DNA from: an uncultured virus (IMG/VR IMGVR_UViG_3300028590_000010)
Lineage: Duplodnaviria; Heunggongvirae; Uroviricota; Caudoviricetes
Virus record (IMG/VR): IMGVR_UViG_3300028590_000010
DNA length: 64,000 nt
Direction: 5' to 3' (one strand)
Made by a program: the position numbers and the translations under genes. This document shows, piece after piece, positions 1-42,016 of the stretch. The stretch's first letter is position 1; every line of letters starts with the position of its first letter. The notes under the pieces were generated by a model. It did not search any database. It was not told the DNA's origin and saw only the letters and a list, made by a program, of their open reading frames with translations.

Positions 1-72
1 GACCCCTTCGGGCAACAGGACGCGCAGCACCTCACCCTGTCGCATGATGTGCTGCCTGTTCGGTGCGCTCAC
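1..72 (-). CDS. 5' part of a hypothetical protein running off the window edge (MSAPNRQHIMRQGEVLRVLLPEGV...)
   Basis: GTG at 72-70 preceded by GAAGGAGACAG RBS; frame open to position 1. Confidence 0.5.
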   Translation of the reverse strand, partial: MSAPNRQHIMRQGEVLRVLLPEGV

Positions 73-193
73 TGCCTGTCTCCTTCGCTCGATGTTTCAC
101 GTGGAACCAAGAACGATCATGGTCCCGACAACGCACCCCACACCGGGGCGGGGATGCGAAGCCGACAGCACGTCGATGTTTCACGTGGAACAT

Positions 194-646
194 TCAGCCC
201 TGGGCGGCGGTCAGGTACTCGTCGTACTGGTCGCCGAGCCAGGCGTGCAGCGTGGCGCTGATGCGCTGCGCCTCGTAGTAGTGGTCGAGGACGCTCGGGT
301 CGAACCCGCCCGCCTCGTGCGCCTCGGTGATCCACCCCGACAGGGTGGGGTTGTTGTCGTACTGGGAGGCGTCGGCCAGCAGGTCGGCCAGCACCAGGGC
401 GGGCATCGGCTCCCTGCGGTTGCCGCCCGTGGCCCGTCGGCTGTCGGCGGTGATGCCGGGGATGCCGGTGAAGTAGGCGGTGCGTCGGGTGTCGCCGTCG
501 GTGACCCAACGCTCCGGCTCGTTGGAGTTGCGGACGAACACGACGTCCCACACCTCGTGTTCGGTGTACGGTCCGGTGCTCACCTCGTGCGTCCAGAACC
601 AGTGCGTCTCGACGGCGTCGCGTGCGATCAGTTCGGCCAGGGTCAT
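194..646 (-). CDS. Hypothetical protein (150 aa)
   Basis: ORF with ACAGGAGACAG RBS before ATG at 646; flanked by parS copies. Confidence 0.75.
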   Translation of the reverse strand: MTLAELIARDAVETHWFWTHEVSTGPYTEHEVWDVVFVRNSNEPERWVTDGDTRRTAYFTGIPGITADSRRATGGNRREPMPALVLADLLADASQYDNNPTLSGWITEAHEAGGFDPSVLDHYYEAQRISATLHAWLGDQYDEYLTAAQG

Positions 647-698
647 GCCTCTGTCTCCTGTCTCTCGATGTTTCACGTGGAACCAAGAATGATCTTGG

Positions 699-929
699 TC
701 AGTCCTCGTCCTCGTAGCTCTCGTCGGTGAGGCCCCAGCGATAGGCGCAGTCGTAGCTCTCGGTCACGTCCTCCAGGCGGTTGCGGGGAAGCCACTCAGT
801 CGTGCGTCCGCCGTCGAACGAGACCTCCACCTGCTCTTCGCGGGGATCGACCATCACTACGCCTATCTGATCGATGTCGTTGTCGAATGTGACGGTCCGC
901 AGCGTCAGGTCGTCGGGCAGGTCGCCCAT
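699..929 (-). CDS. Hypothetical protein (76 aa, acidic)
   Basis: ORF with GAGAGGGG RBS; between parS copies. Confidence 0.7.
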   Translation of the reverse strand: MGDLPDDLTLRTVTFDNDIDQIGVVMVDPREEQVEVSFDGGRTTEWLPRNRLEDVTESYDCAYRWGLTDESYEDED

Positions 930-1046
930 AGGTACCCCTCTCGTCGATGTTTCACGTGGAACATTGCTCCGTCAGGTCGGGGGAACGTCCCGACCCTGCC
1001 AACGTGGGGCAGGCAGGGGCGGGACGCTCGGCCTGAGGTGACGGGG

Positions 1047-1508
1047 TCAGTCGTGCTGCCCGACGAGCAGCCGCTCCGACTCGGCCCACGAGTAGCCCGG
1101 CTGCCGGTCGGTGATCCGCTTGACGACGTGCCCGTGCTCGCCGCAGAACGGGGCGGCGGGGTGCGTCACCCCGTCGGCGTCGGTCACGGCGATGTAGCGA
1201 TCGGCGTAGCTGTACTCGCAGTCGGTGCAGGCCACCCGCGTCCAGTACTCCGTGTGGTACAGGTTCACCACGGTGCCGCCGACGTCGACGATCATGTCGA
1301 AGCGGCAGTGCTGCCCGTCGGGGTTCACGTCGTGCCACGTGTAGTGCGTCAGCCGGAGCGTCGAGAACATCGAGACGCGCCGGATCTCCAGCTCACGCGT
1401 GACTGGGGTGTGGTAGGGCCACGTGGACTGCGCCATGTCCCGGCGGAACGCGTAGTCGGTGACGGTCTCGGAGTTGTCCCGCACGGTGGCGGGGATGGTC
1501 ACGGTCAT
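1047..1508 (-). CDS. Hypothetical protein (153 aa; CxxC...CxxH possible Zn site)
   Basis: ACAGGAGACAGC-ATG start; CTDC and CGEH motifs. Confidence 0.7.
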   Translation of the reverse strand: MTVTIPATVRDNSETVTDYAFRRDMAQSTWPYHTPVTRELEIRRVSMFSTLRLTHYTWHDVNPDGQHCRFDMIVDVGGTVVNLYHTEYWTRVACTDCEYSYADRYIAVTDADGVTHPAAPFCGEHGHVVKRITDRQPGYSWAESERLLVGQHD

Positions 1509-1549
1509 GCTGTCTCCTGTCGATGTTTCACGTGGAACATTGCTTTCGG

Positions 1550-1789
1550 TCAGGCCCACCGCTGCAACTCGCGCAGCATCGCGGAGTCGGGCGGGTACGG
1601 CCCGAACACTTCCGCGCTGCGCACCCTGTACGCCCCGCGATCCATGCGCACAAGCGGGTAGCGGTACACGCTGACCACGGTTCCGAGCGGGAGGCGGAAG
1701 TAGAGCATCGGCCCCCTGTCGTACACGTTGTGCCCGCGCTTCCGGTGGCGCAGCAATGTGCGCCGATTGCGCTTGGTCAGACTCCCCAC
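1550..1789 (-). CDS. Hypothetical basic protein (79 aa)
   Basis: ORF filling the interval between two parS copies; GGAAGG RBS. Confidence 0.6.
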   Translation of the reverse strand: MGSLTKRNRRTLLRHRKRGHNVYDRGPMLYFRLPLGTVVSVYRYPLVRMDRGAYRVRSAEVFGPYPPDSAMLRELQRWA

Positions 1790-1823
1790 AGACTGTCGCC
1801 CTTCCTGGTTTCACGTGGAACAT

Positions 1824-2042
1824 TCAGTCGGCGGCGAGTACCGCCTTGGCCCACGCCTCACGGTCAGCCCGTTCCTCAGCGTCCACCTTGGCCCGCCACT
1901 TCCTGTAGCTGCCGCCGGTGCTGGCCTCGACCCACTCCGCGTGGGACGCGTAGCCGTACCGCTGCGCCGCCCGGTCGTACAGGTAGGTCAGGTACTCGGC
2001 GTCCGTCATGGACTCGTCGTACGTCACCGGCTCGAAGGGCAT
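1824..2042 (-). CDS. Hypothetical protein (72 aa)
   Basis: GGAGACAGAC-ATG start directly after a parS copy. Confidence 0.7.
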   Translation of the reverse strand: MPFEPVTYDESMTDAEYLTYLYDRAAQRYGYASHAEWVEASTGGSYRKWRAKVDAEERADREAWAKAVLAAD

Positions 2043-2085
2043 GTCTGTCTCCGTTTCACGTGGAACAATCACGCGTGCTTGTTTC

Positions 2086-2346
2086 TCAGCGCTGGCCCAG
2101 CGTGCGGCGCTTGCGCGGGGGCGCGCTCACGGACGTGGACTCGCCGGTGCTGCGCTCGATCTTGAGCTGATAGAACTTCGTGTGCCCGGTCTTGTCCCGG
2201 TGCTCGTCGAACCACTGCCACCAGGCCGGGTTGTCGACCTGCGTCAGCGGGCCGGACTCGTCGCACTCGCGGCACGCGTTCGCGCGGAACTCCACGTGCC
2301 GTGCGTCGGGGTCGATGGACAGCATGCGCTGTACGTCGGCGCTCAT
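2086..2346 (-). CDS. Hypothetical protein, CxxC...H...H Zn-ribbon-like (86 aa)
   Basis: AAGGAGGAG RBS; CREC...EHRDKTGH. Confidence 0.65.
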   Translation of the reverse strand: MSADVQRMLSIDPDARHVEFRANACRECDESGPLTQVDNPAWWQWFDEHRDKTGHTKFYQLKIERSTGESTSVSAPPRKRRTLGQR

Positions 2347-2540
2347 CTGGTCTCCTCCTTCTTCAGAATCCACCACGTGTTCAGGTGACCCGACGGGACC
2401 ACCCTGACGCGGACGAACAAGCCGGGCCGCAGCCTCTCGCGCTCGTGCTTGTAGCGCATCGCGGTTGACCACGCTGTCTCCCATCCCTGGTCGCTGGTAA
2501 CGAACTCCCACCCCTCAGGGATACGCGACGACTTGATCAT
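2343..2540 (-). CDS. Hypothetical protein (65 aa)
   Basis: GAAGGA RBS; stop overlaps next start (ATGA). Confidence 0.6.
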   Translation of the reverse strand: MIKSSRIPEGWEFVTSDQGWETAWSTAMRYKHERERLRPGLFVRVRVVPSGHLNTWWILKKEETR

Positions 2541-2634
2541 GCGTTGGTCCTTCGTCCATGCCACGGGGCGAACCCCCGATGTTCCACGTGAAACATACGG
2601 GACCATCGGGAGTCGCCCCGAAGCCGGGCGACGG

Positions 2635-2898
2635 TTACAGCGGCGTCGGCATCACGGCCACACCGGTCCGCTCGTACGTGCGCAGGGCGTCAAGCGCCCG
2701 CTCGTACGAGAGGGAGCCGAGGGAGCCCATCGAGACCACCGCACGGGCGAACGGGTTGTGCCGCTGCACCAGCCGGTCGAGGGCCGACATCAGGGTGACC
2801 CCGTCCGTCTCGTCGAGCAGCACCTTGGAGCGGAACATCACGACCGAGTCGTCCCACCCGCTCAGCACGGGGAGCGGGTTGTTCTTGCGTCGGAGCAT
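2635..2898 (-). CDS. Hypothetical protein (87 aa)
   Basis: CAGGAGG RBS, GC-rich third positions. Confidence 0.65.
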   Translation of the reverse strand: MLRRKNNPLPVLSGWDDSVVMFRSKVLLDETDGVTLMSALDRLVQRHNPFARAVVSMGSLGSLSYERALDALRTYERTGVAVMPTPL

Positions 2899-2919
2899 CG
2901 TTGGTCCTCCTGTCACCTG

Positions 2920-3327
2920 TCAGCGGATGTCGGCGTAGCCCAGCGCGGCGCAGTTCGCCACGCCCATGCGCGCCGTCCACTCGATCATCTGGTTGCCGTT
3001 GCGGAAGTTGTCCGTGATCACGTCGCCGCGCGTCTCGCGCACCACCAGGACCATGTCGCCCGTCCGCCACGCCGTCTCGCAGTCGGCGGCGCGCTGCTCG
3101 TCGGAGTAGCCCACGTACCACGCGACAGCGGCCTCTTCGTGCGTGCCGTTCGACATGCACTCGCTGACGTACTCCGGGTCGGTGGTGAAGCCCGTCTCGC
3201 ACACGTAGTCGGAGCCCTCCGCCGACGGGGCGAGCAGCACGCCACCCGCCACCAGGAGGGCCGCCGACAGCGCCCCGAACACCAGTCCGAGCCGACCTTT
3301 GCGCGCCTTGTGGTTCATCATGTCCAT
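2920..3327 (-). CDS. Secreted or membrane-anchored protein (signal peptide, 4 Cys)
   Basis: Basic N-region + hydrophobic LGLVFGALSAALLVAGGVLLA + AEG cleavage-like site; ACAGGAGAC RBS. Confidence 0.7.
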   Translation of the reverse strand: MDMMNHKARKGRLGLVFGALSAALLVAGGVLLAPSAEGSDYVCETGFTTDPEYVSECMSNGTHEEAAVAWYVGYSDEQRAADCETAWRTGDMVLVVRETRGDVITDNFRNGNQMIEWTARMGVANCAALGYADIR

Positions 3328-3339
3328 GTCTCCTGTCTC

Positions 3340-3819
3340 TCACATTGCAAGCAGGATGCCCGGCTTGCGCTGTGTCAACGCACCCTTGCGCGGGTGCAGT
3401 TCGTCCCCGTCCAACGGGGTCGGGCAAAGGAAGCCGTGCGTCAGCATGCGCGTCAGCACGGGATGCCCATCGCCGTAACGCACCGCCACACTCTTCAACT
3501 TGATCATCCGGTACTCAGGACCGGAGTCCTCGTTCTCCGGCGTGCGGTCAACCACCCGCACAATGTGGTCGCCACTGTCCGTCGTCGCCAGCTCATACGG
3601 CTCGACAACCCGCGTCACCTTCACGAACACAGGGTTGCCGTAGTCGTCGACCACAGGCTTACGGCGCGCATCCTTCTTCCGCTTGAAGAACGACACACGC
3701 ACCGGACAACGATGATCGATCGCCGACTTGAACGCGAACCACACATCCAACTGGTCGCGCTCGTCGGTCGCCATGCGGAACCCGTACACGGGCCCGACCT
3801 CCCTAGAAACACACGTCAC
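3340..3819 (-). CDS. Stand-alone WYL-domain-like protein
   Basis: Pattern AIDHRCPVRVSF...TRVVEPYEL...VRVVDR...YRMIKLKSV fits the WYL consensus (AI..r..v.f.Y...R.v.Py.l...a.d....r.frldri). Confidence 0.6.
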   Translation of the reverse strand: MTCVSREVGPVYGFRMATDERDQLDVWFAFKSAIDHRCPVRVSFFKRKKDARRKPVVDDYGNPVFVKVTRVVEPYELATTDSGDHIVRVVDRTPENEDSGPEYRMIKLKSVAVRYGDGHPVLTRMLTHGFLCPTPLDGDELHPRKGALTQRKPGILLAM

Positions 3820-4252
3820 CGTGCGGGGGCACCGTCTGTCGCACCCGCTTGTTGCCGTCCTTGTCCACCTCGTGCAGCTCGATCGAGTTGTCCGCGCAGA
3901 AAACCTCCCCCGTCGCGCTCACACTCGTGTCCGGACGCCACTGCGGCTCAACCTCACGCCGGTAACGCAGGTGCGCCCGATACCGGGACAACGCCCGGCC
4001 CATCGCCGCAACCTGCTCCGGGGAGAAGAACCAGTCACCCGACCAGTCACCCGACCCCGCGTACGGAATCGACACCCGTTCCATCTCGGCCGGACCCGGC
4101 ACCGTGTTGCCCCACGCACCACACCGACGGATCATGCCCGTGTCCAGCGCCCAACGGAGCATCCCCATCGCCGTGTGAAAGCGCATCGGCTCCGGCGGCG
4201 GAACCTTCACCCCGTTGCGCACGATCCAGTACTTACCCTGCACCACGTACAC
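3803..4252 (-). CDS. Hypothetical protein (149 aa)
   Basis: GAGGAG RBS before GTG at 4252. Confidence 0.65.
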   Translation of the reverse strand: MYVVQGKYWIVRNGVKVPPPEPMRFHTAMGMLRWALDTGMIRRCGAWGNTVPGPAEMERVSIPYAGSGDWSGDWFFSPEQVAAMGRALSRYRAHLRYRREVEPQWRPDTSVSATGEVFCADNSIELHEVDKDGNKRVRQTVPPHGDVCF

Positions 4253-4330
4253 AGTCCGTCTCCTCTCGTATGCGGACAGAGGGCCCAATGTTCCACGTGA
4301 AACATTGAGCCCGCGACCCGCACAGTCAGG

Positions 4331-4552
4331 TCACTTGAACGCGAAACACGCCCGGTAGACGAACTGACCCGCCACGCTGGTCTGGTTCGTCACCCGACGC
4401 CACACACCCAGGTTGAAGCCCTGCGCCCTCGCCCACTGCGCAGCAGCAGCATCCGCCGTACGCGTTGCCCGCTTCGCCTTCGGCAAGGGCCCCCGCACCG
4501 TCACCCACAGAGCACGATCCTTGCGCTCGATGGACACCATCAGTCCCGCCAT
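4331..4552 (-). CDS. Hypothetical protein (73 aa)
   Basis: AGGTGA RBS; flanked by parS copies. Confidence 0.6.
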   Translation of the reverse strand: MAGLMVSIERKDRALWVTVRGPLPKAKRATRTADAAAAQWARAQGFNLGVWRRVTNQTSVAGQFVYRACFAFK

Positions 4553-4637
4553 GTCACCTATCACCTTCCATGTGGACACTGAGCGCAGCGCCCGCACGCG
4601 ATGTTTCACGTGGAACACTGCGCCCCGAACCCACACG

Positions 4638-5177
4638 TCAGTCGAGCTGCAACTTTCCCCGCCGGTCGATCCAGTGCAACACCTTGCAGGTGCTGCGGAT
4701 CGGATGCCAGCACGAGAAACACAGAGCGCGCTCCTCACCTGTCGGCACCGGGCCGAACGTCACTCGCCACACGGTTCCTCCGCCTTCGTACGTATGTGAC
4801 GGTTCTACACGCACGTCCGAAGACTCACCCGTGAGCATGAGAACCAGTTGACCCGGCTCGTTGTCAGCGCAACCGTCGCACCTCGTATACGTGTGCTTGG
4901 CCAGCTCCGCACGGTGCGCGATCTCCTCCGCCGTGCGCAGCCGGTACACCATGATCGCCGCCAGATGCGGCGATTTGTACGTGTCCAGGTCCATGGACAC
5001 GAACGACACCCGCGTACCCTTGGCAGGCTTCAGCTCAGCGCGCACACATGCCGCCGCAGCACGCTTGGCCAGCGTCGTCGACTGATCGCGCGTCACTCGC
5101 CAGAACACGCGCACGTGGTGCGTGCCGTTCATCCGGCCCGTGCCCGCATACTCCGTCGTGATCATCTCGTCCGCCAT
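4638..5177 (-). CDS. Hypothetical protein with two CxxC motifs (179 aa)
   Basis: GGAGG RBS; CDGC...CFSC. Confidence 0.6.
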   Translation of the reverse strand: MADEMITTEYAGTGRMNGTHHVRVFWRVTRDQSTTLAKRAAAACVRAELKPAKGTRVSFVSMDLDTYKSPHLAAIMVYRLRTAEEIAHRAELAKHTYTRCDGCADNEPGQLVLMLTGESSDVRVEPSHTYEGGGTVWRVTFGPVPTGEERALCFSCWHPIRSTCKVLHWIDRRGKLQLD

Positions 5178-5437
5178 CAGCCCTCCAACGGTGCCACGTG
5201 CACCGGACGGCCCGACAGTCGGGCCGCCAACGCGTGCGCGTCGTCCTCCGTCATCGGCTCCCCGTACGCCCGTCGCGTGTGCGCACCGTCGTACCGGAAG
5301 ACACCCCAGCACTGGCCGCCGTCGCCGCCGACGAACTGCACCCGGTAACCCTCCGGGCCCGTGAACACCCACCGATTGCAGATGAACGACATCCCGTTCG
5401 GGTCCCCCGTCGGGTAGTCGATACTGCGCTCCGCCAT
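5177..5437 (-). CDS. Hypothetical protein (86 aa)
   Basis: GGAAGGTGA RBS; coupled to downstream gene. Confidence 0.65.
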   Translation of the reverse strand: MAERSIDYPTGDPNGMSFICNRWVFTGPEGYRVQFVGGDGGQCWGVFRYDGAHTRRAYGEPMTEDDAHALAARLSGRPVHVAPLEG

Positions 5438-5513
5438 CTGCTGTCACCTTCCTGAGTCGGGACCGGGCGCGCATGTTCCACGTGAAACATGCGCCCCGGA
5501 CACATCAGGACGG

Positions 5514-6281
5514 TCAGTCGCCCACGTTGCCGTCACACTCAGGCACATCGCACCCGTAGTTCATGCCAGGGCCGCACGTGTGCGCCGGTTCGGCGGCAGG
5601 TGCCAGCACTCCGCCCGACACCCACTCGTGCACGATCTCCGTCGTGCCCGCACGGTGCGCGGACACCGACACGGACCCGTCGCCCCACACGATGCGCGTG
5701 AACTCGAACGCCGAACCGTTGTAGCGGCGCACGTACCGGTACACGTAATCGCCCCGATAACCACCCGGCACACTGCGCAGCCGGTAGCGCTCCGTACGCG
5801 TGACCGCACTGCGCCCCAACGCGGGCGGGTGCGGACCCATCCACGCCACAGTCACGTCCGCGCCGGGCGGGAACTCCACGGGCATGAACGACTCCAGCGC
5901 GGACAGATACGCCGGGGCCGCCGAGTCGTGGCGGTACAGCGCCGCGTACTCGCGCCACGTACGTACGTCCTCGTGCGTGCGCGCCCGGTTCAGCCGGTCA
6001 CACCGCGCGGATGCAGCGGCGAACGTGGGCCACGACTCGATGCCCGCGTGCCCGTGCGTCGGCCGGTGCTCATGCCGACCGGAGAACATGCGCACGTCGA
6101 ACGGTCCGTCAGGGTAGACGCGCGTCTGCACCGTGACCGTGCCGTTCGGCGCGATGTTCGGCTTGGACGACACGACTGCGAACGGCATACCCCCGTCGTC
6201 CAAGAGCACCTGCCCGGACCGCAGATAGCGCGGGGCCATCGTGCGCGGATTCATTTCATACACGCCAACCACACTCCTCAC
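5514..6281 (-). CDS. Hypothetical protein (start uncertain, possibly 6263)
   Basis: Long ORF on the co-oriented strand; GAGGAG RBS. Confidence 0.6.
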   Translation of the reverse strand: MRSVVGVYEMNPRTMAPRYLRSGQVLLDDGGMPFAVVSSKPNIAPNGTVTVQTRVYPDGPFDVRMFSGRHEHRPTHGHAGIESWPTFAAASARCDRLNRARTHEDVRTWREYAALYRHDSAAPAYLSALESFMPVEFPPGADVTVAWMGPHPPALGRSAVTRTERYRLRSVPGGYRGDYVYRYVRRYNGSAFEFTRIVWGDGSVSVSAHRAGTTEIVHEWVSGGVLAPAAEPAHTCGPGMNYGCDVPECDGNVGD

Positions 6282-6361
6282 CTGTCACCTGTCTCGGGGT
6301 GAGACAAGACCGGGACGGCACGGACATCGCAGTCCGTGCCGCCCGGAGATCGGATCACCCC

Positions 6362-6736
6362 CTAGACCGCAGCAGCCTCCGCCGCGATCGTGTCGCAGTC
6401 ACACCCCTCGCCCACGATGTCACCGCACGGCAGGCGCATGGACCACTCCGCCCCGATGCAGGGGACCGAGTACGACACCCCGTGAACGGGCCGACGCAAG
6501 GCACCCAGCACGTAGCGCCCGGTCTCGGTCTCGGCGCACTCCGGGTCGCTCTCGTCCCGCATCGACTCGACCAGCACCGAACCACAGCAGCGCCAGACGA
6601 GCCGGACACGCCCGTGGTACGGCGTCCCCCGAAACTTGACCACGTGCCCCGGGTCGGCCCATACCGGCCACCTGCTGGGGTCTACCGGCTTGCCCTCCGG
6701 GACACAGCGGTGACGTGCGTAACTCCCCATAGCCAA
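6362..6736 (-). CDS. Hypothetical Cys-rich protein
   Basis: 124-aa ORF co-oriented with neighbours. Confidence 0.5.
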   Translation of the reverse strand: MAMGSYARHRCVPEGKPVDPSRWPVWADPGHVVKFRGTPYHGRVRLVWRCCGSVLVESMRDESDPECAETETGRYVLGALRRPVHGVSYSVPCIGAEWSMRLPCGDIVGEGCDCDTIAAEAAAV

Positions 6737-7044
6737 CCCCTCACACCGTCTTGATCATGAACAGAATCATGACCACCGTCACGAACCGGCCCACCCTCAG
6801 GCACCGGTCAACGCCTGTCTTGACGCGTGACACAGCCACGCTTACGCCCTGACTTACCGTCACGGCCACCCCTGTCACTTGTCCTCCGGGGTCACCACGA
6901 TGGCAATCAGCAAGATCACCGAACACGCGATGACTACCCACATGTCAACCCGCACGGACAACCAACCCCCTTACCAGGCCGGACGGCCTGAGGGACCGTA
7001 GGGCTACGAGGAATCCGCGCCCTACGGTCCGACCACTGCCCGGA

Positions 7045-7995
7045 CTACTTACCGCGCTTACGCTCCGCGATACGGGCCTGCGCCTTGCGCTCCGCGTTCA
7101 CCTTGCGCCGGTGCCGACGCTTGGATGCAGGAGTGCGACGGGCGGACGACTGCACGAACCCGTCACGGTCTGCGGCATCCGGAACGATGGTCCGGTCAAC
7201 GCGCTCCCGGAGGGAACCGTCAAGTCGCGGGGATGCGGGCTCGATGGCACCGGTCACAGGGTTGCGCCACGTACGCCGAGGGGCATCCGGGTTCGGTTCT
7301 GCGATCGGGGCACCGACGAGACAGTTGGGCAAGTCACCCGTAGGGCGCTCCCAATCCGTCACCTGACCATCGGTCGCTTCCATGTTGGGACCCTGAACCA
7401 GCGCGACACCATCGGACATGCCATGGTCACGCTGCCCGATCGGGGACCGCTCAGCCTTGGGGACCATGCCCCCGATGCTCTTGGCGGACACGTCAAGTCG
7501 ACGTGCCAGCGCAAGCGCTTCGTCGTCGCGACCATCACGAGTGAGGTCAACGATCACCGGATTGATCTTGGACGCCTCACCGAACAACGGCTTCAATTCA
7601 GCCGTACGCCGTCGCTCAGCGTCTTTCGGGTCACCCTGAGTAAGACCGGTCGCCACGTTGTCAGTGGTCGGCTCACTCAGTTCCTTGCCACGCTTGCGCG
7701 TGTCTTCCGCCATCCGGATCGTGCACGTCTTGCAGCGCTGCCTCTTAGAAGGGGCGAGACGCTGCGAGTCCATGACGCGACCGCAGACAGCTTTGACCGA
7801 CTCGTCACCGTCGGGCCTGACCGGAATGAGGAACGCGTGTTCCATACCGGAGGAATAGCCCAACCACAACGGGGACGGAACCTCGTTCTTGACCGAGAAC
7901 GGCGTGATACGCGCGCTCTCGTGCGCCGGAACGGCAACGATCTTGGGGAGTTCCCGGATCGCAGCAGCCGGACGCGTGTGCGCCAACTTGCGCAT
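7045..7995 (-). CDS. Hypothetical protein (316 aa) with H-C-CxxC Zn-finger-like motif and Arg/Lys-rich C-terminus
   Basis: ACAGGAGACAGTT-ATG; EHAF...AVCG...RCKTC; C-terminal SKRRHRRKVNAERK. Confidence 0.65.
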   Translation of the reverse strand: MRKLAHTRPAAAIRELPKIVAVPAHESARITPFSVKNEVPSPLWLGYSSGMEHAFLIPVRPDGDESVKAVCGRVMDSQRLAPSKRQRCKTCTIRMAEDTRKRGKELSEPTTDNVATGLTQGDPKDAERRRTAELKPLFGEASKINPVIVDLTRDGRDDEALALARRLDVSAKSIGGMVPKAERSPIGQRDHGMSDGVALVQGPNMEATDGQVTDWERPTGDLPNCLVGAPIAEPNPDAPRRTWRNPVTGAIEPASPRLDGSLRERVDRTIVPDAADRDGFVQSSARRTPASKRRHRRKVNAERKAQARIAERKRGK

Positions 7996-8663
7996 AACTG
8001 TCTCCTGTCTCATGTCACCTATCCAGGGGGCGAGAGAGGGACGGACACACTTACCCCTAGGGGCAGGGTTGGTCCCTCTCTCGCCACACTCTGTTAGGGC
8101 CGTCTCACTTAAAGTGATCGGGCCCGGTCCCCTTCGCTACGCGCGGGGACCCTACCCATGGGCCGGAAGTGCCAGTTCCGGCCCATGGGGATGTTGGCGT
8201 TTTGCCCACTGACCACACAACCGCGTATGACTGCCGTCCGGTCCCCCTTCCTAGGGAGGATGCTCCGGCGGGTACGTCACCCTTCGTACGCTCCAGTCGT
8301 GACTTGCGGTCCGTACCGTTGCGCCGTTTGGGCGGTGGGGCCCATACCCCATGACGGGGCATGCCGGATTACGCGCGTCTGCGCGTGTCTCGGTATGGGC
8401 GTGCTTGACACACTGTTCAGTTCTCAATGGCCGTGTGAATGGCCGCACTGTGCCGTGCGAGGGCATCTGTCAACGCGCTCCCGCTCAACGCGGGGGGTCA
8501 ACTCACGCGCCCGGCCTTCCGTCCGGGCTTCCTACTCCTTGCCCCTCTCCCCCGACGGGGGAGAGGGACCCGGCCGGGGGAGGGACCTTCGTCCTTCCCC
8601 CTTGGGGTACCCCTAGTCTATAGCCGAATCGGCCGGAAGTGTCTTGACGTCGAGATAAAACGG

Positions 8664-8679
8664 TGTGACGTGCGTCACA
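8664..8679. promoter_or_regulatory. Perfect CRP/GlxR-type box TGTGA-CGTGCG-TCACA
   Basis: Exact TGTGA-N6-TCACA in a long non-coding region. Confidence 0.5.
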
Positions 8680-8857
8680 CGCATGTGAGCACACCCATGC
8701 TCAACTGAGCGTCAACCGGCGTTGACACCAAGTGAGCCGGCGTGCGCTCATGTGAGCGCTCACGTGAGAGGGGTGGTGCTCATATGAGCGGTGCTCATGT
8801 GAGCGGAGGGGGTGCTCATGTGAGCGCTCATACGAGCAGGAGTTTGCTCAAATGAGC
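8680..8857. repeat. Array of GCTCANNTGAGC palindromes (8 near-complete + 2 partial)
   Basis: Copies at 8699-8710, 8746-8757, 8758-8769, 8778-8789, 8793-8804, 8814-8825, 8826-8837, 8846-8857; partials at 8680-8690 and 8727-8737. Confidence 0.9.
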
Positions 8858-8897
8858 GGGGGTCCTGGCGCGCGGTCCCGCGAAATTTTTGCACCCT

Positions 8898-9371
8898 CTA
8901 CGACCCTCTAGAAGATTCCGACATATCGCCCATACCGTCGCGAATCGTCACCATCACCTTCTCGTACAGCCCTCCGTCCCACTCCCGGCCCACCTCCTTC
9001 AGCGCCAGGAGCGCGAAGGAGGAGGCCCGCGCCAGCTCCGGCGAACAGCGGTGACAGAAACCGAAGTTGGCGCAGTGGATCGTGGAGCGGCAGCCGGTCG
9101 GGTGTAAGTACGGCAGCACCTCGACGCCGACCCTCATGCGGTCGAGGACGAACGTGCCGTGCGCGGTGGTGTGGACGTACCCGTTGTCCCGCAGCTCCCG
9201 GACCGCCCTGGCCGCCGTCTCCCCGGCCACGTCGAACGTCTCGGCGATCCTCGGCACAGGGGGCACCTTCTGGCCGGGCATCAGGTCGCCGCAGTCGATG
9301 GCCTGTTCGAAATGCCGAACGATCCGCCGGTACTTCGACTCTCTCCCCTCGGGGGCGGGGCCGTCTTCCAT
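8898..9371 (-). CDS. GntR-family winged-HTH protein with Cys/His-rich C-terminal extension
   Basis: KYRRIVRHFEQAIDCGDLMPGQKVPPVPRIAETFDVAGETAARAVRELRDNGYV...GTFV is the GntR wHTH; C-terminal CRSTIHC...FCHRC. Confidence 0.85.
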   Translation of the reverse strand: MEDGPAPEGRESKYRRIVRHFEQAIDCGDLMPGQKVPPVPRIAETFDVAGETAARAVRELRDNGYVHTTAHGTFVLDRMRVGVEVLPYLHPTGCRSTIHCANFGFCHRCSPELARASSFALLALKEVGREWDGGLYEKVMVTIRDGMGDMSESSRGS

Positions 9372-9384
9372 CGTGTCTCCTTCG

Positions 9385-9708
9385 CTACGGGCCCAGTACT
9401 CGGCGCAGGGCCTGCTCCATTTCGACCCGGGTCTCCAGACTCACCGGGCCGAGGTCTTCCTTCAGCTCTTCCTGAAGCACCATGCCGATGTCCCGGCAGA
9501 TGATGTAACCGAAAGCGGGGTCACCGGGGTTGAGCCGGACGGCTCCAGCGGTCCCGTCGTGTTCCTTGCTGGTCGCCACCTGCGCGGTGATGTACTCGTC
9601 GTAGAGCGCGTTCAGCCTGTCGTTGGACACGATGATGCCGAGCACGGTGACATCCTGGTCGAGGCACAGCCGGTAGATGTGGCCGTACCGGGCTTCGATG
9701 ATGCTCAC
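9385..9708 (-). CDS. Divergent MazF/PemK-fold protein (107 aa)
   Basis: YGHIY...IIVSNDRLN...ITAQVAT...YIICRDIGMV...LGPVSLETRVEMEQALRRVLG follows the PemK/MazF pattern, but the R-P catalytic motif is missing; GTG start coupled to upstream stop. Confidence 0.6.
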   Translation of the reverse strand: MSIIEARYGHIYRLCLDQDVTVLGIIVSNDRLNALYDEYITAQVATSKEHDGTAGAVRLNPGDPAFGYIICRDIGMVLQEELKEDLGPVSLETRVEMEQALRRVLGP

Positions 9709-10046
9709 AGCTTGCCGATTTCCTTCAGGATGTCTTCGATGTGGCCGTTGAAGTACCGGCCGCAGCATTCGTACTCGATCATGGGGGCGACCGCGAGTCC
9801 GGCGAGTCGGCAGAACTGGTCGAAGGTGATGACGCCGCTCATGGGGTTGCCGTACTCGAAGCGGGCGACGGGGTTGTGCCAGTCGTCCCAACTCCACTGG
9901 GTGTAGTCCTCGTCGGGGAAGGAGTGGACGGTTCCACGGGAACGACGGTAGCGCAGATAGTAGTACTGACCGTTCGTGTCCCAGGCGTTCCACGACGAAG
10001 GAAGACCCATGGACGTCTGCACCGCGCGGACCAGGGTGATGTTCAC
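9705..10046 (-). CDS. Hypothetical protein (113 aa)
   Basis: GTGA-coupled on both sides; PSSWNAWDTNGQYYYLRYR. Confidence 0.7.
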   Translation of the reverse strand: MNITLVRAVQTSMGLPSSWNAWDTNGQYYYLRYRRSRGTVHSFPDEDYTQWSWDDWHNPVARFEYGNPMSGVITFDQFCRLAGLAVAPMIEYECCGRYFNGHIEDILKEIGKL

Positions 10047-10369
10047 GCGGGGTTCCCGTCCGTGACGTGCCGGACGCGGTTCCTGCGCATACACGCGCGC
10101 CACTTCAGCCGTTCCGGGTCTGCCGCGTCCACCTCGGCGGCCCGCTTGTAGGCGAGGTCGAGTTCCTTCTCTCGCAGCAGGGAGCGGCCGAGGTCGATCA
10201 GTCCGTGCAGCACTTCGGATTCCGAGGTGCGCGCCCCGATTCGCAGGCCGGTGAGCGCGGTGAAGGCTTGAGCCTTGGTGCTGTCTCCGGCCTTCAGCTC
10301 GGTGAGGTCGTCCAGATCTTCGCTGGTCAGGGACACATTTTTACGCACCCGAGGGGGCTTGGCTGTCAT
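10043..10369 (-). CDS. Ribbon-helix-helix / antitoxin-like protein (108 aa)
   Basis: RVRKNVSLT beta-strand, SESEVLHGLIDLG helix, C-terminal LREKELDLAYKRAA reminiscent of RHH MazE-type antitoxins. Confidence 0.5.
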   Translation of the reverse strand: MTAKPPRVRKNVSLTSEDLDDLTELKAGDSTKAQAFTALTGLRIGARTSESEVLHGLIDLGRSLLREKELDLAYKRAAEVDAADPERLKWRACMRRNRVRHVTDGNPA

Positions 10370-11082
10370 GCAACCACTTTAGCGATTTTTCTGCATCGAC
10401 GAAAGCGGTGTTGGTGCATCAGATGATTTCCCACCCACCAGGTGTACGCGGGTGGTATGGCCTGACGCACCCCGTCCTGGTTCGCCCATGGCATCCCCAT
10501 CGCCTGGGCTGCCTCGTCCACGCCGGAGAAGTTCCCCGCGATCGACCAGAACTCCCCCGGTCGCGGCTTGCGTCCCATGGGCGCGGTGCGGGCGACGTGG
10601 AGAGGGTGCGCTGGGGAGTCGGGGCGGGGCACACCACCGAACTCGAAAATCCTGTGCCGGTAAGTGGGTAGTCCGAACATCGCGCCGCACAGCATGACGG
10701 GGTCGATCAGCGGAGCGCCGATCACGTTCTCGATGACGTACGGAATGTGGTGCCCGTCGGCCCACAGAGCGGCGAGGGCGGCACGCAACGGCGGGATGTA
10801 GTCGGTGTGCTGGTACCGGACCGGGGCCGAGTTGCGGGCGACGGTGTGCGCGCGGCACACGGGGGACGCGTGGATGTAGTCGTACTCGTGCCCGTGGGCA
10901 CGCAGGTACTCGATGGCGTCCCCGTGCACGAACCGGATGTCCGGCGGGACGAGTTCCATGGGGCGGATGTCCACGCCGGTCACATCGAACCCGGCGAGGT
11001 GGTACCCCCAGCCAGCGCCGCACTGACCGCAGAAGAGGTCGAGCAGACGGGGCCGCCGGGGGATGTCAGTCCTCGCGGACAA
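10366..11082 (-). CDS. DNA cytosine methyltransferase (short phage type)
   Basis: Motif I LDLFCGQCGAG, motif IV HASPVC, motif VI ENV, RHRIF, motif X QAIPP; TTG start is estimated. Confidence 0.85.
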   Translation of the reverse strand: MSARTDIPRRPRLLDLFCGQCGAGWGYHLAGFDVTGVDIRPMELVPPDIRFVHGDAIEYLRAHGHEYDYIHASPVCRAHTVARNSAPVRYQHTDYIPPLRAALAALWADGHHIPYVIENVIGAPLIDPVMLCGAMFGLPTYRHRIFEFGGVPRPDSPAHPLHVARTAPMGRKPRPGEFWSIAGNFSGVDEAAQAMGMPWANQDGVRQAIPPAYTWWVGNHLMHQHRFRRCRKIAKVVA

Positions 11083-11353
11083 TGACGTGCTTCTCTTCCG
11101 GAAGCAAGTCGCCCACGGTCGGCTCCTTGCCCGCACTCTCCCACTGACCCTCGTGCGCGAGACGGATCGAGGAAGCGAAGTAACGCCGGTGCCCGCCCGC
11201 CGTCTTGGTGCAGCGCAACCGGCCACTGTCGGCGTAGATGTTCAGCGTGCGCGTGGTGACGCCGAGAACACCCGCCGCTTCACGGGGCGTCAGAAGGACT
11301 TCCAGGACATCCTCGTCGTCAGGGACGTTGGTGTAGATATCGGTCACGGTCAC
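11066..11353 (-). CDS. BldC-like MerR-family DNA-binding protein
   Basis: LLTPREAAGVLGVTTRTLNIYADSGRLRCTKTAGGHRRY parallels BldC LLTPAEVA...T.GGHRRY. Confidence 0.8.
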   Translation of the reverse strand: MTVTDIYTNVPDDEDVLEVLLTPREAAGVLGVTTRTLNIYADSGRLRCTKTAGGHRRYFASSIRLAHEGQWESAGKEPTVGDLLPEEKHVIVRED

Positions 11354-11686
11354 ACGCTCTCCAAAGTCGACATGTATTCAGATGCACCCGAAGGTATACC
11401 CGCGAGCTTTGGCCAAGGGAAGAATCTACAGGAAATTTTTTCATTTCCGAAGGCAACCCTCATAGAGGTCGAACAACCGTTCTACCTGTCAGTAACTGAT
11501 GTGACCCGCACCACACATGAGGTACTTTATTTATAAAACGTATAGCGACCGTATACTGGAATCCGGACACGCTGACACCACCCCCCGGTGTCGGCGCGCT
11601 CCTTTCTCCAGGGGATGCAAAACGCCTGCACGGTGACCGTGTGGGCGTTTTCTTTTGCCCGAAAACGGCCACCTCGGCAGGACCGT

Positions 11687-12271
11687 ATGACTGACGACAA
11701 TCTGCCCGCGTTCCAGGGCAACGAGGAGTTCTTCCCCGAGCAGCGACCCGACGACTACCCCGCCTACCACAACTGGAAGCGGGACCGGGAAGCCTCACGA
11801 CTTTCGGCCATCGGGCACAGCCCCGACGAGATCGCCGAGATCCTCAACCTCACCGACCGCGAGACCGGACTCCCGGACGCCCGCCGCGCGGTGACCGCCA
11901 TCCGGCGCGGACTGACCGCCGTCTACCGCTTCACGGCGGATGAGACGAAGCTCCAGGAACTCCAGTCCCTCGACGAGATGGAGCGCCACCTCTGGGGGCA
12001 GCTCCGGCGCGAGCACGTGCTGGTCCAGCAGGGCCGCGTGATCATGGTCGAGGGCCAGGTCGTCCAGGACGAACGCTTCGTCCTGGAGACGCTCGACCGC
12101 ATCCTGAAGATCAAGGAGCGCCGGTCCAAGTACCTGGGTCTGGACGCGCAGGTCCGCCTCTCCGTCGAGGCCGACCAGATCGGCAGCGAGATCAGCAGCC
12201 TGATCGCGATGATCAACGCCACCGAGGACGTCACCAAGGCGGCCCTTGGTTCGTCCGAGGACGACGGATGA
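11687..12271 (+). CDS. Putative terminase small subunit (HTH)
   Basis: HTH (GHSPDEIAEILN), ILKIKERRSKYLGLDA motif, position upstream of TerL. Confidence 0.65.
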   Translation: MTDDNLPAFQGNEEFFPEQRPDDYPAYHNWKRDREASRLSAIGHSPDEIAEILNLTDRETGLPDARRAVTAIRRGLTAVYRFTADETKLQELQSLDEMERHLWGQLRREHVLVQQGRVIMVEGQVVQDERFVLETLDRILKIKERRSKYLGLDAQVRLSVEADQIGSEISSLIAMINATEDVTKAALGSSEDDG

Positions 12272-15066: not shown

Positions 15067-15360
15067 TCAGGCGCTCTTGCGGCCGAAGCCACGGCTCGGA
15101 TCGGCGCGCTTGTTCTCGACCGTGGCGGACCGGAAGACATCCTTCTCCACCTCGTCGGACACGTCGTCGATGACGCCTTCGCCGACGAACCGGATGTCTA
15201 CGCCTACCGCATCCATGTACCGGCGCAGCGTCGGGAACATGACGTCCGGATAGCTCGCTTCGATACGGCTCACCTGCGTGTTGCTCACGCCCATCTTCTT
15301 CGCCATCTGGGACTGCGACAGCCCAGCGCGCTTACGCAGGTCGGCAAGGGTCGTGGTCAT
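15067..15360 (-). CDS. XRE/HTH_3 DNA-binding protein
   Basis: LADLRKRAGLSQSQMAKKMGVSNTQVSRIE; AAGGAG RBS. Confidence 0.85.
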   Translation of the reverse strand: MTTTLADLRKRAGLSQSQMAKKMGVSNTQVSRIEASYPDVMFPTLRRYMDAVGVDIRFVGEGVIDDVSDEVEKDVFRSATVENKRADPSRGFGRKSA

Positions 15361-22177: not shown

Positions 22178-22588
22178 ATGGGGTCGGTTTCCTATCACAT
22201 CAGTTTCCGGGGCCGGGCTCAGGGCCCCATCTCTTCCGGCGCAATCCACAAGCACGTCCACGACTATCAGGCGGACGTTGCGGAGGAACTCGCCAAAGAG
22301 GCAGAGAACGCATGGCTGGTTTACCTCAATTCACGGCTGAGGCACCAGCGCCCGTACTACACAACTCGTATCGAAACCAGGCGCTTGGCCTTCAACCGGT
22401 ACAAGATCCACGACAACGACGTCATCTACGGCCACTGGCTTGAAGGTACGGGGTCCAGGAACTCTCCGGTCACCCGATTCCCCGGCTATTGGTCGATGCG
22501 GGACACCAAGGCGGACATGAAGTACGACCGGAAGCCGATCGCCGAACGCGTCCTGGGAGAACACCAGGCACGGGGCCGCCTGATCTAG
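22178..22588 (+). CDS. Neck / tail-completion protein (HK97 gp10-like)
   Basis: YGHWLEGTG...FPGY motif; position. Confidence 0.6.
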   Translation: MGSVSYHISFRGRAQGPISSGAIHKHVHDYQADVAEELAKEAENAWLVYLNSRLRHQRPYYTTRIETRRLAFNRYKIHDNDVIYGHWLEGTGSRNSPVTRFPGYWSMRDTKADMKYDRKPIAERVLGEHQARGRLI

Positions 22589-22597
22589 GAGGAACCC

Positions 22598-23053
22598 GTG
22601 ACTCTCGCCATCAACGAGATTCTCGACATCGTCGTCACCCACGCCCAGAACACAGGGTGGTTCCAGACCGTCACGGAATACGAGTCCAAGCAGTCCGGAA
22701 CGAACGGAATGACCGCCGGTGTCTGGGTGGACAGCATCGTGCCGATCAAGTCGTCGGGACTCGCCAGCGCATCCGTGCGCCTCGAACTCCAGATGCGGCT
22801 GTTCGGTTCCACAATGTCGGAACCGTACGACGATATCGACGCCAATCTCACGAAGGCGGTCGACGACCTCTTCACCGCGTACATCGGCGACTTCGATCTC
22901 GGCAGCAATGCCCGGCACATCGACATCTTCGGCGCTCACGGTAATCCGCTGAGTGTCCGCGTCGGCTACATGAACATGGACGGCCGGGAATTCCGGGTAT
23001 TCCAAATCGTGCTGCCGATCATCATCAACGACGTTTGGTCTGAATCGCCCTAG
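22598..23053 (+). CDS. Tail terminator-like protein
   Basis: Position before tail tube genes; AGGAGG RBS. Confidence 0.6.
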   Translation: MTLAINEILDIVVTHAQNTGWFQTVTEYESKQSGTNGMTAGVWVDSIVPIKSSGLASASVRLELQMRLFGSTMSEPYDDIDANLTKAVDDLFTAYIGDFDLGSNARHIDIFGAHGNPLSVRVGYMNMDGREFRVFQIVLPIIINDVWSESP

Positions 23054-23064
23054 AAGGAGGCATC

Positions 23065-25926: not shown

Positions 25927-26084
25927 CGAAGCCTTCGGAATACGCCAGGGCAGAACTCCTCATCTCCCTGTGTCAATTCTTCCATGTGCTGCCCAGTCAG
26001 ATTCTGGATGAGGACGTAGAAATCCTCCAGCTGGTCGAGCTGTACGAAATGGGCAAGGACAGAAAGGGCGGTCACGATGGCTGA
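25537..26084 (+). CDS. Tail assembly chaperone, -1 frameshift product
   Basis: After A_AAA_AAG the -1 frame is open to TGA 26082-26084 (...LLISLCQFFHVLPSQILDEDVEILQL...). Confidence 0.8.
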
Positions 26085-41905: not shown

Positions 41906-42016
41906 GGGTGACCCCGGACGAGTCCGGGGCAGCAGGATGGTGGAGCAACCGTGGAGTTGTGCCGCCCTGCTTCTCCGGTGCCGCTTCAAGTGGGAGCACC
42001 GGAGCCGTTCTGTACG

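Follow-up and report, generated by a model that had tools for sequence, protein, structure and literature searches.

Why should an uncultured soil phage carry, between its small early-type genes, a dense array of exact copies of the bacterial chromosomal centromere site parS, and yet have no gene for the ParB protein that reads it? This question was raised by a sequence-only reading of the window, by which we mean the whole 64-kb stretch of DNA analysed here, a part of the genome of a ~100-kb siphophage. As dense exact parS copies are present, yet no ParB gene, the phage most likely borrows the ParB of its host.

Number, sequence and placement of the sites

An exact search of the whole window returned 11 copies of the 14-mer GTTTCACGTGGAAC, spanning positions 94-5488, and none elsewhere; eight lie on the plus strand and three on the minus strand, and the expectation from 100 shuffled windows was 0.00. 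The 16-mer TGTTCCACGTGAAACA is exact at seven of these places (177, 948, 1524, 2580, 4289, 4602 and 5474) and has one mismatch, at an outermost base, at the other four (93, 669, 1807 and 2052). Outside 93-5489, the window contains no match to TGTTCCACGTGAAACA even when two mismatches are allowed. The 14-mer with up to three mismatches gave only five further rows in the other 58 kb, with 5.3 expected by chance, and therefore degenerate copies of the site are absent outside the array. The array and its sites are as follows (strands of sites are those of the GTTTCACGTGGAAC match; counterparts are positions in G006, the closest relative).

1..5513, minus strand: early-type array of ~15 small genes (from gene calls) with sites at its junctions, running past the window start
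94..107, plus: parS-type site; mRNA-sense (minus) strand reads GTTCCACGTGAAAC; 16-mer with one mismatch; counterpart ~939
178..191, plus: parS-type site; exact 16-mer; sense form GTTCCACGTGAAAC; immediately past the stop codon that ends the upstream gene; counterpart ~865
670..683, plus: parS-type site; start of gene 194-646 is 23 nt downstream, with a ribosome-binding site between; counterpart ~341
949..962, plus: parS-type site; exact 16-mer; gene 699-929 lies 19 nt downstream; counterpart ~102398
1525..1538, plus: parS-type site; exact 16-mer; left joint of the window-specific cassette (motif search and G006 alignment)
1808..1821, plus: parS-type site; part of a 283-bp cassette (site and gene 1550-1789) missing in G006, hence unaligned
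2053..2066, plus: parS-type site; in G006 the orthologous site is a perfect palindrome, GTTTCACGTGAAAC (motif search and G006 alignment)
2581..2594, minus: reversed parS-type site; sense strand reads GTTTCACGTGGAAC; longer gap with adjoining GC-rich hairpins; counterpart ~101026
4290..4303, minus: reversed parS-type site capping a GC-rich palindrome of 14 pairs; fold of the sense RNA (40 nt) -23.0 kcal/mol; counterpart ~99302
4603..4616, plus: parS-type site; exact 16-mer; sense form GTTCCACGTGAAAC; counterpart ~98997
5475..5488, minus: reversed parS-type site, the last of the array, within a GC-rich palindrome of 16 pairs; fold of the sense RNA (40 nt) -28.8 kcal/mol; counterpart ~98217, with changes on both palindrome arms

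According to GC3-based gene calls made in this analysis, all 11 sites are intergenic, in a stretch of which ~82% is coding, and all of them occupy gaps separating small minus-strand genes. Between 647 and 5513, a site is found in each of the nine gaps longer than 30 nt and in none of the five junctions that overlap or measure 21 nt or less. At almost every operon-internal junction the site lies 10-50 nt from the downstream start codon, the layout in the array being stop codon, site, ribosome-binding site (RBS) and start codon; such a placement has a regulatory look. Thus, 11 intergenic copies within 5.4 kb, none in the remaining 58 kb and seven exact 16-mers, all claimed from the letters of the window, were found again by our counts.

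Typical spacing between sites is ~450 bp, and the array measures 5-7 kb. Position 1 of the window falls inside it, and G006 has three more sites past the matching point. The array (1..5513) is colinear with 97.6-102.4 kb plus 1-1 kb of G006; none of the 16 ORFs at 194-6736 matched a PHROG or a Pfam family. The alignment places a G006 site opposite ten of the 11 window sites, against a background identity of 76%, and this, together with the lack of degenerate copies, argues for purifying selection on the sites.

The phage, its relatives and the likely host

PHROGs identified genes for terminase, portal, protease, capsid, tape measure, endolysin, holin, DNA polymerase and others in the window, and the phage is lytic-looking; the ~38 kb of its genome beyond the window were judged from G006. 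Other genes of the window code for a Sak4-type annealase, an exonuclease and helix-turn-helix (HTH) proteins recognised with Pfam (GntR-like, 8898-9371; HTH_17/MerR, 11066-11353; HTH_3, 15067-15360; HTH_31, 46027-46359); G006 likewise has several small HTH proteins. Four near-complete relatives carry 14 (G006, unique sites), 20 (G008), 24 (G002) and 32 (G007) sites, confined to arrays of small co-directional genes. The GC content is 65%, and endolysin and ThyX match Streptomyces phages. Together with the ParA of the relatives (see below), which is closest to Streptomyces ParA, these features suggest that the host is Streptomyces or a close relative.

Match to chromosomal parS and content of ParA and ParB

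The parS consensus TGTTNCACGTGAAACA is tabulated for B. subtilis and C. glutamicum (PMC7022226); seven of the 11 window sites agree with this 16-bp near-palindrome exactly, and the other four show the outermost mismatch noted above. TGTTCCACGTGAAACA itself is described, in a passage of PMC4333373, as the parS inside the B. subtilis parB gene. The proposed match to the chromosomal consensus was therefore correct. Three Streptomyces genomes contained 16, 19 and 30 GTTYCACGTGRAAC sites in clusters over ~160-330 kb; 54 of these 65 host sites are the perfect palindrome, the asymmetric variant typical of the phage occurs 3, 4 and 4 times in the oriC-proximal clusters, and four host sites share the full 20-mer consensus of the phage. 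Streptomyces ParB has been located on its own parS sites by ChIP-seq, and parS numbers of 16 for S. venezuelae and 23+1 for S. coelicolor are stated in the relevant passages of PMC4852455.

Neither ParA nor ParB was detected in the window by Pfam on 61 ORFs or by tblastn with phage ParA and host ParB. The ParB_N cut-off was reached by none of seven related records, and the HTH_ParB cut-off by neither G001 nor G002, the two records searched for that domain; host ParB, used as a tblastn query on the window and on four relatives, gave only matches with E of at least 0.047, i.e., at noise level. ParA was found at 206-208 bits in three of five records (G002, G007 and G008), inside or beside the array. 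These proteins are 69-71% identical to Streptomyces chromosomal ParA (69-70% for G002 against ParA of the Streptomyces parAB operon), and, among the best 120 ParA matches listed, the named ones were almost all Streptomyces ParA with 66-71% identity, the exceptions being four from other actinobacterial genera. Judged by these identities, the ParA of the relatives is host-derived. No conserved parB-like gene was found downstream of it. Hence, the earlier statement that canonical parA and parB are missing stands for ParB in all records searched and for ParA in the window and G006, and has to be withdrawn for ParA in G002, G007 and G008. A self-contained ParABS locus in the window phage was rejected, as the window and G006 have neither a cognate ParB nor an adjacent ParA.

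The same three ParA carriers share a tyrosine recombinase, which scores 33-40 bits above the Pfam cut-off and matches XerD best in the PDB (E 8e-5). It may act as an integrase or as a dimer resolvase, and it was found neither in the window nor in G006.

Asymmetric variant, flanks and RNA folding

The asymmetric variant makes up 98 of 101 unique phage sites (99 of 102 rows) versus 11 of 65 host sites (Fisher p = 7e-29), and, apart from the reversed sites, its orientation is fixed relative to transcription. Phage flanks are conserved out to ~22 bp, whereas those of host sites are conserved loosely: the AT..AT 18-mer is present in 68 of 102 phage rows (63 forward and 5 reversed) versus 9 of 54 host sites. 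No conserved block was found beyond the ~22-bp palindrome. Since the flanks are conserved past the 16 bp that ParB needs, another constraint or binder may act on them.

On the sense strand, the 24-nt fold averages -2.4 kcal/mol, versus -7.0 on the antisense strand (93 of 102 rows); with the asymmetric base pair oriented in this way, the in-operon transcript has a C-A mismatch and folds weakly. The six reversed sites have a mean 40-nt sense fold of -21.3 kcal/mol, and the three in the window cap strong GC-rich hairpins that may be terminators, as predicted from folding. Two candidate roles were rejected. One is that of RNA hairpin elements in general, stable sense-strand structure being limited to the six reversed sites. 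The other is that of promoter-type (early promoter/PeSL) cassettes: there is no promoter consensus at or beside the repeat, and the only sigma-70-like promoter in 1-12000 lies at 11530-11557.

Sites as joints of early-gene cassettes

The window has one extra unit of site plus gene compared to G006, 283 bp long and placed exactly between two sites, and the slot next to this insertion holds an unrelated gene between conserved sites; this detailed comparison of indels and slot replacement concerns one genome pair. The arrays of the window and G002 share the sites as their sole common sequence, and in G007 and G008 the ParA gene is itself a site-flanked cassette. As far as such alignments tell, the sites behave as joints for insertion and swap of early-gene cassettes. 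Site number goes with cassette number, and therefore the count of sites need not be selected for ParB.

Probable borrowing of host ParB and alternative explanations

Overall, we consider it probable that the 11 sites are true chromosomal-type parS, loading host ParB on a ~100-kb ParB-less siphophage of Streptomyces or a close relative. In an infected hypha, host ParB dimers would bind each site, close into CTP-dependent clamps and spread, so that the 5-7 kb early-gene array would become a single large ParB-DNA complex per phage genome. This complex would be handled by ParA, namely, host ParA in the window lineage and the phage copy of host ParA in the three relatives, and phage DNA would be positioned and partitioned as a chromosome origin would be. 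The most likely payoff would be spread along many-genome hyphae and into prespore compartments, i.e., the spore-entrapment strategy of phi29 in a second spore-forming host; draining of ParB from the host chromosome would be a side effect. Recruitment of host ParB by host-type parS, as the sequence-only reading had proposed, is thus the best-supported reading on circumstantial grounds: identity to parS, occurrence in Streptomyces, absence of ParB and the ParA of the relatives. Several observations count against it: the dominance of the asymmetric variant and the conserved flanks differ from host sites, the placement of the sites looks regulatory, their number follows that of the cassettes, the window encodes several HTH proteins, and the window lineage is without the ParA on which the case rests in the relatives.

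The sites might instead be operators or stoperator-like signals for a phage DNA-binding protein controlling the early array, their likeness to parS being due to capture from the host or convergence, with ParB binding unselected. Their position 10-50 nt before start codons at almost every operon-internal junction, the single fixed variant with flanks conserved past the 16-bp parS and an orientation fixed to transcription, and the several small HTH proteins in the window and G006 would all suit such a role. However, it is very unlikely that 101 sites would agree exactly with 14-16 bp of the universal parS if ParB were not involved, such sites would be bound by host ParB in any case, and relatives keep a host-derived ParA, without ParB, among the sites; moreover, no candidate regulator is tied to the sites, and searches of the phages revealed no HTH of the ParB type. 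We regard this explanation as unlikely. Ranked next below it, and also improbable, is a centromere of an extrachromosomal plasmid-like prophage in the style of P1, N15 or cluster A mycobacteriophages, which would have outsourced ParB to the host and, in the window lineage, ParA too. ParA with parS is indeed a plasmid partition core, and the three ParA-bearing relatives share the recombinase, but the window and G006 keep the array without either gene. Moreover, no close relative appeared in 72,556 plasmid records (portal identity below 31% among the 12 records listed) or among representative bacterial genomes, by a method that detects close relatives only, and PHROGs/Pfam showed no gene for plasmid replication or telomere resolution in the window or in G006.

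The least probable alternative, which we hold to be quite improbable, makes the repeat chiefly a recombination joint for gain, loss and swap of early-gene cassettes, with ParB binding incidental and unselected. The 283-bp unit and the unrelated gene in the next slot, the sites as all that the window and G002 arrays have in common, and the ParA cassette of G007 and G008 are what it would predict; the Sak4-type annealase and exonuclease could serve it, and conserved flanks with fixed orientation fit homogenisation between direct repeats. However, any sequence could act as a joint, so the exact parS core and the ParB-less ParA accompanying the sites are left unexplained. Such a role is also compatible with the loading of host ParB rather than exclusive of it. 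It is tempting to combine the two, and we do so as a speculation that is doubtful in its full extent: a ~100-116 kb Streptomyces phage family might possess a dual-purpose centromere, in which 14-32 parS load host ParB (with stolen ParA in some members) and let a virulent genome segregate along hyphae and into spores. The 22-bp repeats would double as cassette joints, and the asymmetric base pair would be orientation-coded, silent in mRNA where read-through is needed and part of a terminator hairpin elsewhere.

Comparison with known systems

P1 parABS and N15 sopABC are partition systems of plasmid-prophages, and a parABS of cluster A mycobacteriophages is named in a passage of PMC8612146. All of them place centromere sites for a ParA/ParB-type machine on a phage genome; however, they use their own ParA-ParB pair and a private parS, whereas the window lineage has the site of the host and neither protein. 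Plasmid RK2 carries about a dozen copies of the KorB operator, a palindromic ParB-family site, beside genes. This repeated site on a mobile element suggests how a ParB clamp could control genes, but KorB is encoded by the plasmid itself and the window phage is without a ParB-family gene. In T4-type phages, PeSL (promoter-early stem-loop) cassettes have a short conserved intergenic repeat flanking small early genes in a hyperplastic region. The window repeat similarly lies at the edges of cassettes that are gained, lost or replaced; it differs in having no sigma-70-type promoter and in its core, the predicted binding site of a host protein.

The chromosomal ParABS of Streptomyces has an identical 14-bp core and a multi-site cluster, and with 16-30 sites in three genomes its count per replicon is similar. 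Chromosomal sites, however, are spread over ~200 kb, are mostly the perfect palindrome with loose flanks, and have ParB encoded beside ParA; those of the phage are ~20 times denser, asymmetric in all but three of 101 cases and conserved in their flanks, and the ParB gene is absent.

The closest precedent is Bacillus phage phi29, for which PMC2731898, in a passage citing Meijer et al. 2005, describes how host Spo0J (ParB) reads five parS sites, by which the genome is brought into the prespore. Thus, borrowing of host parS by a phage is not new, although the sequence-only reading did not know of it as a described phage strategy. The link is not common knowledge either, since the word 'phage' is absent from a comprehensive ParB review (PMC7022226). 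Both phi29 and the window phage are lytic-type, without a ParB of their own (for the window phage, the unseen ~38 kb again being judged from G006), and carry several copies of the parS of a host chromosome; the host of phi29 is a spore-former whose ParAB segregates DNA into spores, and the presumed Streptomyces host of the window phage would be one too. Differences lie in the five sites, small genome and protein-primed ends of phi29, as opposed to 14-32 sites in the window family (11 in the window) within an early-gene array, a single asymmetric variant of fixed orientation, sites acting as cassette joints and a host-derived ParA in three relatives. New here are how large the array is, the use of one asymmetric variant, oriented with transcription, in 98 of 101 sites, and sites as joints of exchangeable cassettes; fixed orientation, stop-site-RBS-start placement and joints also go beyond what had been noticed in the window before.

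If true, the proposed borrowing would show that the strategy of phi29 is used in Streptomyces as well as in Bacillus, these being the two classic hosts that sporulate and hold many genomes, and on a much larger scale, sites per phage genome being about as many as per host chromosome. It would give a direct handle on the movement and persistence of lytic phage genomes in hyphal bacteria and on their route into spores, and one may ask whether host ParB is drained as the phage replicates. The orphan host-derived ParA of the relatives would offer a natural test of ParA-ParB partner specificity, and the asymmetric, orientation-fixed site a clean case of one motif under constraints at both the DNA and the RNA level.

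Distribution of the sites in the window

The motif GTTTCACGTGGAAC is present in 11 copies at window 94-5488, a number for which shuffled sequences give an expectation of 0 (motif search, 64-kb window). Seven places carry the exact 16-mer TGTTCCACGTGAAACA, and the four others differ from it in one outermost base. No copy of the 16-mer with up to two mismatches lies outside 94-5488 in the 64-kb window, while the 14-mer at three mismatches gave only 5 rows in the rest of the window versus 5.3 expected by chance; the window copies are thus all-or-none. A previous sequence-only reading had reported 11 copies in 5.4 kb and had noticed no other full copy, seven of them being exact and all of them intergenic, and the window agrees with it on each count: our own gene calls place all 11 sites between genes, although approximately 82% of this DNA is coding.

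From window 1 to ~11.3 kb all genes are read on the minus strand (gene and strand assignments around the sites are ORF-based calls). On this strand, a junction runs from the stop codon of the upstream gene through (A)ATGTTCCACGTGAAACATCG(A) and 10-25 nt containing a ribosome-binding site to the start codon. Within window 647-5513, sites occupy all nine gaps longer than 30 nt and none of the five junctions of 21 nt or less. Sites 94 and 178 precede a gene whose start is near 46 and which continues beyond the window. No sigma-70-like promoter was found at the repeats. GC-rich, hairpin-like stretches (read by eye from the unfolded sequence) adjoin sites 94/178 and 949 in gene-free gaps at window 108-177 and 963-1046; judging by their sequence, they may serve as terminators that separate groups of cassettes.

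Sequence identity of the sites to chromosomal parS

The proposed match to chromosomal parS is borne out in sequence. The exact 16-mer is the parS found within the B. subtilis parB gene (passage of PMC4333373), and it fits the consensus TGTTNCACGTGAAACA, which part of PMC7022226 tabulates for B. subtilis and C. glutamicum. Chromosomes from many phyla contain the 18-mer form, eight Streptomyces assemblies among them. In three Streptomyces genomes, GTTYCACGTGRAAC sites number 16, 19 and 30 and surround parAB, with nearly all of them on a single contig: most fall within ~160 kb, and outliers extend the spread to as much as 330 kb. In S. venezuelae, an excerpt of PMC4852455 reports ParB on its 16 parS sites by ChIP-seq. 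The phage consensus ATGTTCCACGTGAAACATCG equals one or two chromosomal parS in all 20 bases in each of the Streptomyces genomes G003, G004 and G005, and such host sites are possible sources of a phage founder site.

Host parS sites equal to the 20-base phage consensus
G004, contig C4, ~178284
G003, contig C1, ~245817
G005, contig C62, ~190476
G005, contig C62, ~198040

Related phages and their arrays

An IMG/VR portal search returned 17 loci with 67-100% identity, of which we examined the five longest or closest, together with G002, which came from the motif scan. In every relative with sites, these are held in blocks of small co-directional genes.

Related records and site counts
G002: 116,662 bp, 92% complete; 24 sites
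G006: 102,442 bp, ends overlapping by 127 bp; 15 site rows, 14 unique
G007: 104,344 bp; 32 sites
G008: 111,555 bp; 20 sites
G009: 48 kb; 1 site
G010: 28.9-kb fragment, 100% identical to the window's portal; 0 sites
G001: 37 kb, 31% complete, record nearest to the window; 0 sites

The window runs colinear with G006, its closest relative, in reverse: window 937-63795 corresponds to G006 102,410 down to 38,290, window 479-704 matches G006 528-307, and G006 has three further sites beyond the point matching the window start. Such colinearity indicates that the window begins inside the array and that ~38 kb of its genome lies outside the sequence seen. No IMG/VR contig extending the window leftwards was found with an exact window 30-mer.

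Some open frames in the relatives cross a site, whose translation then gives VPRET or MFHVKH at a protein end. For at least some of these C-terminal tails the overlap may be genuine, so that "all intergenic" is perhaps not valid for every relative.

Open frames reading through sites
G007 22550-22852
G007 22849-23733
G007 24892-25107
G008 83437-83667
G008 84651-84842

Among the matches listed, there were also IMG/VR "viral" contigs of ~11 kb from one sample with inverted parS, one or two exact 16-mers lying ~150-300 bp from each end (loci L038/L039, L062/L063, L075/L076, L064/L065, L096/L097 and L125/L126). Their sites are placed as they would be if a small linear element carried them in inverted repeats at its termini.

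Conserved sites and exchanged genes

Of the 11 window sites, 10 have an aligned counterpart in G006, while the aligned 5,959 bases are 76% identical, a contrast that we read as purifying selection on the sites. The unaligned site, 1808, belongs to a 283-bp unit (the site plus gene 1550-1789) that is missing from G006 exactly between two sites, and the next slot, 1824-2042, is filled in G006 by an unrelated gene with conserved sites on either side. G002, which is more distant, shares little with the window across the array besides the sites. Since sites are kept in both comparisons with differing genes between them, the sites persist and the intervening genes turn over. The sites act as joints of exchangeable cassettes, and we infer that the phage annealase and exonuclease could drive short-homology exchange at them.

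Asymmetry and orientation

A feature missed by the sequence-only reading is the asymmetry of the sites. Our census covered the window and four large relatives (102 rows, 101 unique sites).

Site forms in mRNA sense
GTTCCACGTGAAAC: 93/102 rows
Reverse orientation (GTTTCACGTGGAAC): 6/102 rows
Perfect palindrome: 3/102 rows

Asymmetric forms thus make up 99/102 phage rows versus 11/65 sites in the three Streptomyces genomes, where 54/65 are perfect palindromes (Fisher p = 7e-29). Conservation of phage sites reaches ~22 bp, flanks included: the AT..AT 18-mer is found in 68/102 phage rows (63 forward exact, 5 reversed), and AT..AT flanks accompany only 9 of the 54 host sites examined.

In the common orientation, the would-be hairpin of the transcript has a C-A mismatch, and the mean 24-nt fold is -2.4 kcal/mol, compared with -7.0 when the opposite strand is folded and -6.3 at perfect sites. 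The six reversed sites form three pairs of orthologues (window 2581, 4290 and 5475 with their G006 partners) and sit in longer gaps. Two pairs have the site within a GC-rich palindrome of 14-16 pairs, the third adjoins GC-rich hairpins, and in one pair both palindrome arms are altered together. The 40-nt sense folds of reversed sites range from -13 to -29, with a mean of -21.3 versus -7.1 for other sites. Such a pattern leads us to infer that the DNA site must remain a ParB-grade palindrome and that its one free position keeps the mRNA unstructured beside the ribosome-binding site, save where a terminator-like hairpin is wanted. An alternative of equal standing is that direct-repeat recombination simply keeps the copies alike and co-oriented.

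ParB, ParA and a tyrosine recombinase

The claim that no canonical parA or parB accompanies the sites held for ParB throughout, and for ParA in the window and G006 but not in G002, G007 and G008. No ParB_N domain passed the cut-off in any of seven related records, HTH_ParB stayed under it in G001 and G002, Pfam gave no ParB among 61 window and 75 G006 ORFs, and Streptomyces ParB as a tblastn query returned noise only. Two candidates were rejected: a 12-bit ParB_N match in G002, whose ORF looks vWA-type by eye, and window ORF 51789-52490, whose 31-residue likeness to a ParB HTH (tblastn E 0.21) had no Pfam (E <= 10) or PDB-sequence support and was set aside as noise.

ParA is encoded by three of five records (206-208 bits), its gene lying within the array or next to it; the G007 and G008 copies have sites on both flanks, as other cassettes do, and are followed by no conserved gene. 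Against ParA of the Streptomyces parAB operon, the G002 protein shows 69-70% identity, and against a second paralogue of the host 44%. The named ones among the best 120 matches are almost all Streptomyces ParA (66-71% identity), with four from other actinobacterial genera, and no Streptomyces phage matched among 50,697 records. By these identities, the relatives' ParA derives from the host.

The same three relatives possess a tyrosine recombinase, and the window and G006 have neither gene; no serine recombinase was found. We had presumed the enzyme to be Cre-like from its look. Its sole PDB sequence match is XerD instead, and we therefore name it a tyrosine recombinase and no further. The co-occurrence with ParA hints at two lifestyles inside one phage family.

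Tyrosine recombinase and ParA in relatives
G002 26019-27065
G008 18074-19108
G007 72211-72924

Possible role of the sites

The simplest account would have host ParB load on the phage sites, as the sequence-only reading had proposed. The sites might otherwise be operators for a phage-encoded regulator, the array might be the centromere of a plasmid-prophage, or the sites might be a pure recombination joint. We favour ParB loading because ParB-less phages keeping a host ParA among host parS make little sense otherwise, and because sites of this kind would in any case be bound by the host's ParB.

There is, moreover, a precedent: Bacillus phage phi29, according to a part of PMC2731898, carries five parS sites which, together with Spo0J of the host, assist entry of the phage genome into the prespore. 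The likeness lies in host-type parS on a phage, read by host Spo0J in phi29 and predicted to be read by host ParB here. In Streptomyces, ParAB segregates chromosomes into spores and ParA promotes assembly of the ParB complex (section of PMC4852455). Given both, spore or hyphal partitioning leads as the putative purpose of ParB-loaded phage sites; conceivably, they may also titrate ParB, recruit SMC or TopA, or control genes through ParB clamps. As a strategy, such recruitment is not new, the principle being already published for phi29. Searches of the openly accessible literature returned no description of parS arrays on actinophages, and a large ParB review (PMC7022226) makes no mention of phages.

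Phage identity and gene content

The window has a GC content of 61-68%. By PHROGs, its plus strand at 11.6-37.2 kb encodes large terminase, portal, maturation protease, major head and tail proteins, tape measure, endolysin, holin and ThyX, and its minus strand at 37.5-64 kb DNA polymerase A, SNF2 helicase, a Sak4-type annealase, exonuclease and SSB. No PHROG or Pfam family matched the 16 ORFs at 194-6736. Window DNA was detected in soil metagenome runs only, with no RNA runs among those listed. Megablast gave no isolated-phage match to window 1-8000, the nearest isolated phage being Streptomyces phage Dagobah (48% portal identity), and 72,556 plasmid records and the representative bacterial genomes yielded no close relative.

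A Cro/CI-type HTH gene of 97 residues lies between the terminase and portal genes on the opposite strand; at the matching region, G002, G007 and G008 instead have a tyrosine recombinase within a block on the minus strand. A gene for a Ro60/TROVE RNA-binding protein adjoins a Tad2-like (anti-Thoeris) gene, with three tRNAs (Asn, Met, Arg-CCT) nearby. A fourth, weak tRNA-like match at 42570-42629 (-) could, from its sequence, represent the tRNA-like portion of a Y RNA that partners Ro.

Further features of the window
15067-15360 (-), Cro/CI-type HTH gene
30584-34459 (+), tail-region protein of 1,291 residues bearing a carbohydrate-binding module, phosphodiesterase-like at its end
39649-41433 (-), 41390-41617 (-), 42570-42629 (-), 42016-42089, 43139-43215, 53748-53820, Ro60/TROVE, Tad2-like and tRNA neighbourhood
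55328-55792 (-), SLOG/YspA-like protein
60547-61227 (-), TerD-domain protein
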